Origin: a virus
Length of the DNA: 22,035 bases
UHGV virus genome: UHGV-0200595
Direction: 5' to 3' (one strand)
A model generated the notes under the pieces. The model had not been told where the DNA came from. It made no database searches and worked only from the letters and a program-made list of their open reading frames with translations. Position numbers and translations under genes: made by a program. This document shows, piece after piece, positions 94-2,047 of this stretch (position 1 is its first letter; each line of letters begins with the position of its first letter).

Positions 94-113
94 TACTGTA
101 TATACATACAGTA
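94..113. promoter_or_regulatory. LexA (SOS) box TACTGTATATACATACAGTA
   Basis: CTGT-N8-ACAG with an AT-rich spacer. It matches the 20-mer consensus TACTGTATATATATACAGTA at 19/20 positions. It lies in an AT-rich island (about 61-318) with TTGATT/TTGATA -35-like hexamers at 73-78 and 90-95 and a TATATAAG element at 124-131. The promoter direction is not resolved. Confidence 0.7.
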
Positions 114-318
114 TTCGGCGAGATATATAAGCGTGTAAAAACCTTTCGTTAACCAGAACAGATACTAAGTGATTAAAAAATACCCATAAATATGAACGTA
201 AATGCATCAAATTTACATACAGCGCGAATTAAATGATTACACTCGTTATATTTCCTCCCGCAACAAAAATTGCGTATAACCGTGTATTTTCATTTTCCCT
301 TAGTAGCAAGGAGGTATT

Positions 319-531
319 ATGAAAAATTTTCAGGGAACCATTAACCGCAAGTATGTGGTCATTCGTCGGGATGATATGTCGGTTGTGGCGGAAATGGATT
401 ATTTCCCGGATACCGAGAGAGCTATTTGGATACGTAGCGGAAGAACGCTGAATATTCGCCCGCTTAAGCCAGATGAGCGGGTTGTTTCTCCCACAGTTCT
501 CCGTGAAATGGTTTGCCAGTTTATTGGGTAA
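319..531 (+). CDS. Hypothetical 70-aa phage protein (moron-like, downstream of the LexA box)
   Basis: ORF with a strong SD (AAGGAGGT) 6 nt before the ATG. It has coding-like composition and is preceded by an AT-rich promoter-like region. No family recognised from memory. Confidence 0.55.
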   Translation: MKNFQGTINRKYVVIRRDDMSVVAEMDYFPDTERAIWIRSGRTLNIRPLKPDERVVSPTVLREMVCQFIG

Positions 532-618
532 ACTTGAAGCCGTTTAAGGCTTCAATAATAATATCCCTGCATGCCTGAACAACATGCAACCTGATAACGA
601 TGCGTCACTGAGGAAACT

Positions 619-1218
619 ATGGCGCATCTACAACTAGTCAAACAAACCTCTTCAGGATTACTGCTCCCGGCAACGCCGGAAAGTGGCGATTTCCTGCAAC
701 AAATTAAAATTGGTGAGTGGATACACGCTGACTTCAAGCGTGTGCGTAATTACGCATTCCATAAGCGATTTTTCAAACTTCTACAGCTTGGTTTCGATTA
801 CTGGACGCCAACAGGTGGCGTTATCACTCCGCGTGAGAGGAAGCTGGTTTCTGGCTTTGTTGATTTCTTGTGTGAGTCAGTAGGCCGGGAACATACCCCG
901 GCACTGAGCGATGCAGCAGAGCAGTATCTGCACGAAATCGCCACCAGGAGAACCGGGGACGTTGCTCTGCTCAAATCTTTCGATGCTTTCCGTGAATGGG
1001 TAACCGTTCAGGCTGGTTTTTTCCTGGAGATTGTCTACCCGGACGGCAGCCGCGGGCGCAGGGCTAAATCCATCTCTTTTGCGAATATGGACGAAGGCGA
1101 GTTTCAGCAGGTTTATAAAGCCGTACTCAACGTACTGTGGAATTGGATCCTGTTCCGAAAATTTTCTTCTCCGGAAGAAGTTGAGAACGTCGCCGCGCAG
1201 CTTCTGGAGTTCGCATGA
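619..1218 (+). CDS. DUF1367-family phage protein (nin-region protein)
   Basis: 199-aa ORF with an SD (GAGGAA) before the ATG. Its stop overlaps the next gene's start (ATGATGG). The sequence resembles the DUF1367 proteins found before Q in enterobacterial lambdoid prophages (recalled, not searched). Confidence 0.7.
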   Translation: MAHLQLVKQTSSGLLLPATPESGDFLQQIKIGEWIHADFKRVRNYAFHKRFFKLLQLGFDYWTPTGGVITPRERKLVSGFVDFLCESVGREHTPALSDAAEQYLHEIATRRTGDVALLKSFDAFREWVTVQAGFFLEIVYPDGSRGRRAKSISFANMDEGEFQQVYKAVLNVLWNWILFRKFSSPEEVENVAAQLLEFA

Positions 1219-1508
1219 TGGCTGATTTACGAAAAGCATCACGCGGCCTGATGTGTACAGTCAGGATCCCCGGTTACTGCAACCATAATCCCGAAACATC
1301 TGTGCTTGCGCACTACCGGATGGCCGGCACTTGCGGGACCGCAACAAAACCACACGATATGCAGGCGGCGATCGCCTGTTGTGCCTGCCATGACCTGATC
1401 GACGGTCGGGTAAAAACCGATGACTACAGCAAAGAAGAACTTCGCCTGATGCATGCAGAAGGCGTTTTCCGTACGCAAGAAATCTGGAGAGAGAAAGGGC
1501 TGATATGA
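1215..1508 (+). CDS. DUF1364 / YbcO-like Cys-rich putative nuclease
   Basis: 97 aa, MMADLRKASRG...CTVRIPGYCNHNPETSVLAH...CCACHDLIDGR. It closely resembles E. coli DLP12 YbcO (MADLRKAARG...CQVRIPGVCNGNPETSVLAH..., recalled). Translationally coupled on both sides. Confidence 0.75.
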   Translation: MMADLRKASRGLMCTVRIPGYCNHNPETSVLAHYRMAGTCGTATKPHDMQAAIACCACHDLIDGRVKTDDYSKEELRLMHAEGVFRTQEIWREKGLI

Positions 1509-2047
1509 TTTACCCAACCAATACAGGAAAACCAGGTGAACACCTTCGCCTTAGCACACTCGAGAGCGTATGGATTCAGGGCAAGTTGCGTATGTGGGGC
1601 CGTTGGTCGTACATCGGCAGCGGTAAACCTGGCAACATGTTTAACCAGTTGCTGACGTCTAAAAAACTGACCAAAACAGCGATAAATGAGGCGCTCCGCA
1701 GAATGAAGCGGGCAGGGCTGGATAAACCGGAACTTGAGGCATTTTTGCGGGATATGATTAACGGTAAACAAAAAAGCTGGCTTGCACACTGTTCGGATGC
1801 GGAGGCGTTAAAAATCGACGGGGTTATCGGTGAAGTCCTGGCGGATCATCCCAGATTGTTCAATATCCTGAGTCAGCGTTATGTGGGGCGGGGGATGAGT
1901 AAGCGCATGATGGCCGAGAGGTTAAATGAAGTACATCCAGAATGGTGCTTTAGCACATGCGAAAAGCGGATCGCTAATTGGTTAGCTGTCGCAGAATATA
2001 TGCTTTATATCCCCATGCATGAATCATTTGCTCAAAAAATGACTTGA
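1505..2047 (+). CDS. Late-gene antiterminator Q-like protein (phage antitermination Q family, QuuD-like)
   Basis: 180 aa. It sits immediately upstream of a pR'-like promoter and tR' terminator. It contains the LRMWGRW motif reminiscent of LERWGAW in QuuD-type Q proteins. The position after the nin-type genes is typical for Q. Confidence 0.65.
   Translation: MIYPTNTGKPGEHLRLSTLESVWIQGKLRMWGRWSYIGSGKPGNMFNQLLTSKKLTKTAINEALRRMKRAGLDKPELEAFLRDMINGKQKSWLAHCSDAEALKIDGVIGEVLADHPRLFNILSQRYVGRGMSKRMMAERLNEVHPEWCFSTCEKRIANWLAVAEYMLYIPMHESFAQKMT

Follow-up and report, generated by a model that had tools for sequence, protein, structure and literature searches.

A probable Gifsy-type SOS antirepressor module without dinI abuts the Q operon in virus genome UHGV-0200595

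A LexA box lies near the start of a 22,035-nucleotide (nt) stretch of the virus genome UHGV-0200595 (hereafter the window, in which all coordinates are positions), upstream of a gene for a Q-like late antiterminator. The original prediction for this locus was that transcripts from the SOS-regulated promoter could read through into Q, which would couple late-gene activation directly to LexA cleavage rather than only to inactivation of the CI repressor. Our analysis favors another explanation, to which we assign a probability of about 70%: the locus is an SOS-controlled antirepressor module of the type known from the Gifsy prophages that abuts the Q operon, and LexA serves at most as an auxiliary, feed-forward input to Q. 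The box appears to act primarily on an antirepressor-like open reading frame (ORF) of 70 amino acids (aa) and not on Q, and direct coupling of LexA to Q was not borne out as the main route, as the Q operon has its own predicted promoter in 83 of 83 distinct loci. Judged by its sequence, the locus is an ordinary member of the known Gifsy-type SOS antirepressor module that lacks dinI.

In the mechanism that we propose, cleavage of LexA would lead to expression of the small antirepressor through a 205-nt leader without dinI, and the antirepressor would then inactivate a short, non-cleavable prophage repressor of the GtgR/DicA type. The irsA-ybcO-Q operon follows on this strand, and as no conserved terminator intervenes, the SOS transcripts would very probably carry on into it. 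From the operon's own promoter, transcripts would begin at the base of a 5' hairpin, and the first start codon would be held in a second helix. The features concerned are the following (free energies, ΔG, are in kcal/mol).

37 to 59, plus strand: intrinsic terminator ending the upstream hok-type toxin mRNA (stem and T7 tail, ΔG -11.9, z -3.3)
72 to 99, plus strand: candidate SOS promoter, read from the sequence (-35 TTGATT at 72-77, 16-nt spacer, extended -10 TGaTACTGT at 91-99)
94 to 113, no strand assigned: LexA (SOS) box TACTGTATATACATACAGTA, matching the E. coli-type SOS-box consensus at 19 of 20 positions
114 to 318, plus strand: untranslated AT-rich leader of ~205 nt in place of dinI, with no plus-strand ORF of at least 30 aa
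319 to 531, plus strand: 70-aa ORF, probable Gifsy-type antirepressor, ending 87 nt before irsA
458 to 482, plus strand: terminator-like hairpin in the 70-aa ORF (9 pairs, ΔG -13.7, tail UUGUUUCU)
534 to 562, plus strand: candidate promoter of the irsA-ybcO-Q operon, from a promoter scan (-35 TTGAAG at 534-539, 17-nt spacer, -10 AATAAT at 557-562)
569 to 587, plus strand: predicted 5'-terminal hairpin of the operon mRNA, GCAUG-CCUGAACAA-CAUGC, with a CUGAACA loop
599 to 628, plus strand: helix masking the irsA AUG, in which GAUGCGUCA (599-607) pairs with UGGCGCAUC (620-628) and the Shine-Dalgarno sequence is left in the loop
619 to 1218, plus strand: irsA homologue (DUF1367; Pfam, 316 bits)
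1215 to 1508, plus strand: YbcO-like putative nuclease (Pfam, 142 bits), its start overlapping the irsA stop
1505 to 2047, plus strand: Q-like late antiterminator (DUF1133/Phage_antitermQ), its start overlapping the ybcO stop
2132 to 2157, plus strand: intrinsic terminator after Q, a Q target of the tR' type (ΔG -13.6, T6 tail)

A LexA box overlaps a candidate rightward promoter

In all Gifsy prophages, a LexA box preceded by terminators controls an operon composed of dinI, an antirepressor gene (gftA, gfoA, or gfhA), and irsA (PMC3121763). The LexA box in the window, which had been predicted to lie upstream of Q, is clearly present: TACTGTATATACATACAGTA is the sole match in the window at no more than 3 mismatches to the 20-nt consensus, whereas 100 shuffles gave none and 0 are expected by chance. 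Its core, CTGT-N8-ACAG at 96-111, is AT-rich and near TACTGTATATATATACAGTA, as in E. coli-type boxes, and the box is conserved in the related loci L006 to L011 and L015 to L017. These relatives were located by means of the 70-aa protein rather than the window DNA, and positions 1-620 have no close DNA relative among the E. coli genomes and phages searched. A second match to CTGT-N8-ACAG, CTGTTTGGGGTGACAG at 15157-15172, has a GC-rich core and is probably due to chance, as 0.27 such matches are expected per window.

Positions 72-113 would form a rightward, SOS-controlled sigma-70 promoter with the LexA box covering its -10 and start region. The TTGA.. of the -35 and AAAAATTGnTACTGT (TGnTACTGT in the extended -10) are kept in the aligned Citrobacter relatives, and the register of the promoter relative to the box resembles that in Gifsy-2 (TTGAAT-17-TACTGT). 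As in the Gifsy module, a terminator is followed by a LexA box that overlaps a promoter, and this arrangement is kept in relatives. The window starts with the 3' end of a hok-type toxin mRNA, followed by the terminator at 37-59, and a Hok_Gef gene is located just upstream in L015, L016, and L006 to L009. This terminator would insulate the LexA promoter from transcription entering from upstream.

Rightward transcription, which the original prediction had left as a condition, is supported by the conserved -35 and -10 and by the presence of same-strand genes after the box in all 57 LexA-box loci of the survey described below. A promoter scan also returned a minus-strand candidate, TTTACA-18-AATACT at 139-110, which would place the box in control of leftward transcription. 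However, the -35 of this candidate is not conserved among the relatives, its transcripts would meet the hok terminator hairpin with no gene beyond, and there is not a single LexA-box locus in which same-strand genes are missing downstream of the box, which makes a leftward promoter highly improbable.

The LexA box and promoter together (window 62-121) make up a discrete cassette of ~58 bp. Citrobacter loci contain it, whereas the Salmonella houtenae relatives and phage ZC-S1_prp (L012 to L014 and L003) lack exactly this block yet retain the leader and the 70-aa gene.

The window belongs to a recurrent variant without dinI

In the Gifsy module a homologue of dinI comes first among the operon's genes. 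This is not the case here, where tblastn gave no dinI match at the locus and 114-318 holds no plus-strand ORF of at least 30 aa. A survey with one genome per species comprised 93 distinct irsA loci. An AT-core LexA box was found 295-690 nt upstream of irsA in 57 of these, against a chance expectation of <0.01 per locus, and no LexA box was found in the other 36. A dinI gene was present in 24 of the LexA-box loci and absent from 33. Since 33 of 57 LexA-box loci likewise lack dinI, the window is, by this sequence comparison, a recurrent dinI-less variant of the Gifsy-type module. A long distance between box and stop codon (368-421 nt), like that in the window, occurs in 18 of the 33 dinI-less loci. 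That the region dinI-irsA is conserved in Citrobacter, among other genera, has been reported before (PMC3121763).

Two candidate elements in the leader were dropped. A structured attenuator at 255-318 folded no better than shuffles (z 0.06), and a 14-codon ORF at 192-236 was not conserved among the relatives. One conserved motif, TATATT at 247-252, might serve as an additional -10 that does not depend on LexA. In other dinI-less loci with a long leader (L055, L057, L069, and L070), a conserved hairpin, TTCTCCCCGCCGGGAGAG (-9 to -10 kcal/mol), is situated ~305-350 nt upstream of irsA, after the LexA box and before the small ORF, which suggests leader-level control of the antirepressor in that dinI-less class.

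The 70-aa ORF is probably the antirepressor gene

The ORF at 319-531 shares its strand with irsA and occupies the interval that separates irsA from the LexA box, and its length falls within the range of about 60-80 aa of the small ORF of Gifsy-type modules. Its product is identical to a hypothetical protein of Citrobacter freundii, has only a handful of close relatives, and matches phrog_1813 (5.7e-18); searches of Pfam and NCBIfam gave no family match. It shares 41% identity with SPN3UB_0059, whose ORF is flanked by dinI and irsA in SPN3UB (5.5e-7; hhalign, 99.8%), and an iterative hidden Markov model (HMM) search seeded with the 70-aa protein collected 44 small ORFs from this slot. The protein has the size of GftA-type proteins and aligns with them co-linearly.

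Information on the partner repressor comes from locus L015, which carries an identical 70-aa protein together with an immunity region of the Rac/Gifsy type (an N-like gene, a repressor, YdaS, and YdaT). The L015 repressor, of 138 aa, has an HTH_3 domain only, without a peptidase S24 domain; its identity is 46% to the Gifsy-1/-2 repressor of LT2 (over 96% of its length) and 27% to DicA. The repressors of Gifsy-1, -2, and -3 are not cleaved (Lemire, Figueroa-Bossi & Bossi 2011, PMC3121763). The contrast between LexA and CI in the original prediction is therefore misplaced, because repressor inactivation in this family is itself LexA-dependent; LexA is no alternative to repressor inactivation. 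Taken together, position, size, regulation, and partner repressor indicate that the 70-aa ORF is probably the antirepressor gene of this prophage, with an indirect link, drawn from sequence comparison, to the proven antirepressor GftA. Of note, L015 contains an insertion sequence (transposase with an rve domain) at 5835-6946, just after the YdaS and YdaT genes, and no replication genes were seen before its hok module, so this prophage may be defective.

Several observations weigh against this explanation. Neither GftA nor Rem was matched when the 70-aa protein was compared with them directly by BLASTP. A BLAST chain to GftA exists in which every link has E<=1e-6, but one link is inflated by translated upstream (leader) sequence. 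HMM iteration leaves the 70-aa and GftA families unmerged (E about 0.2-0.5), and hhalign of the 70-aa family against GftA gives a probability of only 20%. The type of repressor is deduced from L015, as the immunity region lies outside the window and outside contig L016. Finally, the S. houtenae relatives without the cassette imply that LexA control would not be obligatory for this gene family.

These same points, namely the missing family assignment, the absence of direct similarity to GftA or Rem, the weak profile link, and the relatives without a LexA box, would fit a different SOS-induced small protein whose placement next to irsA is simply inherited synteny. We consider this unlikely, as slot, size, and strand are the same as for GftA, GfoA, and Rem, the sequence pattern is co-linear with that of GftA-type proteins, and the protein is found together with a GtgR-like repressor that is non-cleavable, a type for which SOS induction requires an antirepressor.

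A candidate promoter and a structured leader head the Q operon

Assignment of the genes downstream of the 70-aa ORF to DUF1367, YbcO, and a Q-like protein was confirmed by their Pfam and phrog scores. DUF1367 is the irsA gene of the Gifsy prophages, and is annotated as irsA in the phage Rac record MN652886. The Q-like protein scores 338 bits with DUF1133 and 33.3 bits with Phage_antitermQ (PF06530), above the curated cut-off of 26, and matches phrog_753, "anti-termination protein Q-like" (2.7e-75); the gene is followed by the terminator at 2132-2157 and, further downstream, by holin and endolysin genes. The irsA, ybcO, and Q ORFs overlap by ATGA at 1215-1218 and 1505-1508.

A hairpin, GAAGCC-GTTTAA-GGCTTC, had been noted in front of irsA and weighed as a possible terminator. 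It is located at 536-553, 11 nt to the left of the position given originally (547-564), and is part of an 8-bp stem at 534-555 (ΔG -12.3, z -5.7) that, as originally described, is not followed by a U tract. This palindrome, TTGAAGCC-GTTTAA-GGCTTCAA, spans the -35 and the spacer of the candidate operon promoter and is not a terminator. A function as operator for the prophage repressor is unsupported, as the L015 operators read TTTCAAT-N5-ATTGAAA, with the opposite half-site geometry, and GAAGC-N-GCTTC is found nowhere else in L015.

The candidate promoter recurs throughout the family. In all 83 distinct loci, a -10 with at least 4 of 6 matches (with A2 and T6) ends 3-11 nt before the 5' hairpin, and in 68 of them the gap is exactly 6 nt. 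A good -35 (at least 4 of 6) or an extended TG is also present in 73 of the 83, and the same test is passed at 0.9% of random control anchors inside irsA. The counterpart in Gifsy-1 and Gifsy-2 is TTGACT-18-CATAAT, with a predicted start ~1,605 nt before the Q start codon. This agrees with the antQ transcription start of Gifsy-1, which has been mapped 1,600 bases before antQ (Hershko-Shalev et al. 2016, PMC4825925).

The predicted operon mRNA begins with two conserved helices. For the 5' hairpin, 94.8% of cells were paired among 66 distinct sequences compared to 65.9% in shuffles, 107 cells showed double changes compared to 28 in shuffles, and the covariation score was 0.82 compared to at most 0.12 with slid partners. 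Its stem is variable and its CUGAACA loop near-invariant, with GAAC and the closing G-C pair invariant. In the second helix, GCGCCA, located upstream of the Shine-Dalgarno sequence, is base-paired to UGGCGC at the start codon of irsA. RNAalifold on 48 sequences gave 6 pairs, of which 5 are never broken and one shows 7 exchanges of CG to UA, and in the window the helix has a ΔG of -14.2 and a z of -5.1. Promoter, CUGAACA hairpin, and start-codon helix recur together in 83 of 83 distinct enterobacterial prophage loci (window 534-628, L002 2416-2515, and upstream of irsA, which is at 3501 in most, in L019 to L098). Downstream of rem, Qin has a weaker version of this cassette in front of a first ORF that is not the same.

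No Rfam family matches the leader in the window or in Gifsy-2, and to our knowledge a promoter with a two-helix leader heading the Q operon, absent from Rfam and from the papers cited here, has not been described. We rejected the possibility that the CUGAACA hairpin is a nut/boxB-type repeat following pL and pR, as a covariance model located a single copy in each locus and none within the immunity region of L015. A more speculative proposal, which we regard as quite unlikely, is that promoter, hairpin, and helix form an undescribed riboregulatory cassette of Gifsy-, Rac-, and Qin-type prophages, in which transcripts from the operon's own promoter would be translationally locked in lysogens and the LexA read-through form would deliver Q. 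Ribosomes finishing the antirepressor ORF would then do so beside or inside the hairpin, and SOS would license the late genes both directly and via the antirepressor.

Transcription between the LexA box and Q

The remaining question is how far SOS transcripts extend. No conserved intrinsic terminator (a GC-rich stem followed by a U tract) was found anywhere from the LexA box to Q in the related loci, 57 for the interval from box to irsA and 72 for that from irsA to Q. In the first interval, only 14 of 57 LexA-box loci gave terminator hits, all weak, the strongest anywhere being that at 458-482 in the window. In the second, 19 of 72 loci had weak in-frame hairpins only, none stronger than -7.9, whereas a terminator is present within 350 nt after Q in 53 of 72. 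Given this lack of a conserved terminator, transcripts from the LexA promoter are, on structural grounds, likely to read through into irsA-ybcO-Q. Moreover, in most loci the small ORF ends from 10 nt inside to 37 nt before the 5' hairpin, so that SOS transcripts would have to cross the second promoter and enter the irsA leader.

The original claim that no convincing terminator is present thus holds at the level of the family, but not for the window itself, where the hairpin at 458-482 combines a stable stem with a U-rich tail. Nor is the palindrome at 534-555 the only hairpin, since others were found at 458-482, 569-587, and 599-607/620-628. The stability of 458-482 equals that of the two bona fide terminators of the region, 37-59 and 2132-2157. 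The hairpin arises from a Pro codon that is Ala in relatives, and it occurs only in the lineage with the identical protein (the window, L015, and L016); the stem is disrupted in both L006 and L012, and L010 has a weaker one. In the window lineage the hairpin could curtail read-through, and this speaks against a feed-forward input to Q.

The stability and U-rich tail of this hairpin, the strength of the stem at 534-555, and the untranslated gap of 87 nt after the ORF would fit with SOS transcripts ending before irsA, whether at 458-482, at 534-555, through Rho, or by processing at the leader hairpins, in which case LexA would control the 70-aa gene only. This appears rather unlikely. The hairpin at 458-482 is not conserved and is located in a translated ORF 40 nt before the stop codon, and an efficient stop there would therefore truncate the gene's own mRNA. 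The palindrome at 534-555 lacks a U tract and its stem is just 5 bp in relatives, the untranslated gap is presumably short for Rho loading, and in many related loci the small ORF extends past the downstream promoter.

It is also conceivable that, as originally proposed, read-through from the LexA promoter is an important direct route to Q, by which SOS would start the late genes whatever the state of the repressor. The lack of a conserved terminator, the overlap of the 3' end of the small ORF with the next promoter or hairpin in most loci, which would make read-through unavoidable, and the coupling of irsA, ybcO, and Q by ATGA overlaps all point in this direction. Furthermore, the LexA module adjoins the Q operon in 57 of 93 loci, and irsA has already been counted in the LexA operon (Lemire 2011, PMC3121763); our literature searches found no paper on read-through from a LexA promoter into Q. 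However, the Q operon universally has its own predicted promoter, a conserved helix masks the start codon of irsA, 36 of the 93 irsA loci have no LexA box, and the window lineage carries the hairpin at 458-482. In addition, the route is not required, because expression of a Gifsy antirepressor alone from PBAD, with LexA intact, results in lysis and phage release (PMC3121763), and Gifsy-2 lysogens transcribe gftA under most conditions and yet keep the lytic genes silent (PMC7067206). We therefore consider an important direct route possible but doubtful, and favor an antirepressor module in which read-through is at most auxiliary.

Surrounding sequence

Over 2,200 positions, contig L016 has 10 differences from the window and L015 has 193, the latter being 91% identical over the first 2.2 kb. 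Two insertions are present between the Q terminator and the holin genes of the window: a HicB/HicA toxin-antitoxin pair at 2723-3397 (minus strand), which L015 lacks, and a shortened N6/N4 DNA methylase ORF at 2154-2660 (168 aa compared to 180 aa in L015). Positions 2081-2155 gave a weak match to isrK, a small RNA family of Gifsy-1, which at 17.5 bits (E 0.9) is far under the gathering score and not significant. This stretch corresponds to a short transcript region ending at the terminator after Q, and is consistent with a promoter-proximal RNA like 6S/IsrK.

Implications

The findings suggest that the Gifsy strategy, in which SOS induction proceeds via a LexA-repressed antirepressor, extends to Citrobacter prophages, including a recurrent variant without dinI. 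The SOS module is almost always joined, without a terminator, to an operon that ends in Q. If read-through yields useful Q, DNA damage would drive these prophages to lysis by two arms at once, and late genes could fire in defective or heteroimmune prophages. The conserved promoter with its two-helix leader provides a testable handle on how such phages keep Q silent in lysogens, where the irsA promoter would have to be restrained, a requirement that also counts against the preferred explanation.

Comparison with known systems

The closest counterparts are Gifsy-1, -2, and -3. Gifsy-2, Gifsy-1, and SPN3UB show the order terminator, LexA box, small ORF, irsA, after which come nin genes and Q on the same strand. 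The window shares with the Gifsy prophages the terminator, a LexA box over the promoter, an ORF of ~70 aa immediately before irsA, nin-type genes and Q further along this strand, and, judging by L015, probably a short non-cleavable companion repressor. It differs in having a 205-nt non-coding leader instead of dinI, and in its small protein, which belongs to the SPN3UB_0059-like branch and not to that of GftA, and whose function is predicted. Furthermore, the gap between irsA and Q holds only ybcO, whereas that in Gifsy contains ninG and others, and the Q of the window is of the DUF1133 type.

In Qin of E. coli K-12, the gene order is hokD-rem-ydfU-ydfT(Q), and Rem is a proven antirepressor of DicA (PMC10448788). 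Qin and the window have in common a hok toxin, a small antirepressor gene (a probable one in the window), a leader that combines a CUGAAC-loop hairpin with masking of the start codon, and an operon ending in Q. In contrast to the window, no LexA box has been reported or was seen for rem, and Rem has no detectable sequence similarity to the 70-aa protein. For the antQ operon of Gifsy-1, the mapped start falls in the gap between antirepressor and irsA, which is where the window has TTGAAG-17-AATAAT and the 5' hairpin, and the operon mRNA rises on expression of the antirepressor AnrP (PMC4825925). That report describes no hairpin, masked start codon, or link to a LexA promoter.

Repression of an antirepressor by LexA, with the repressor itself uncleaved, is also known for Tum of coliphage 186 and AntC of N15 (cited in PMC3121763). 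These proteins and their genome positions are unrelated to those described here, and neither gene adjoins a Q operon. In phage lambda, Q is reached only from pR, via N antitermination across terminators, with tR2-tR4 located in the nin region. As in lambda, the Q gene of the window ends a nin-type block, and its product is expected to act on a promoter-proximal terminator upstream of the lysis genes. Unlike in lambda, the Q operon of the window has a predicted promoter of its own, with no conserved terminators between the operon and the SOS promoter.

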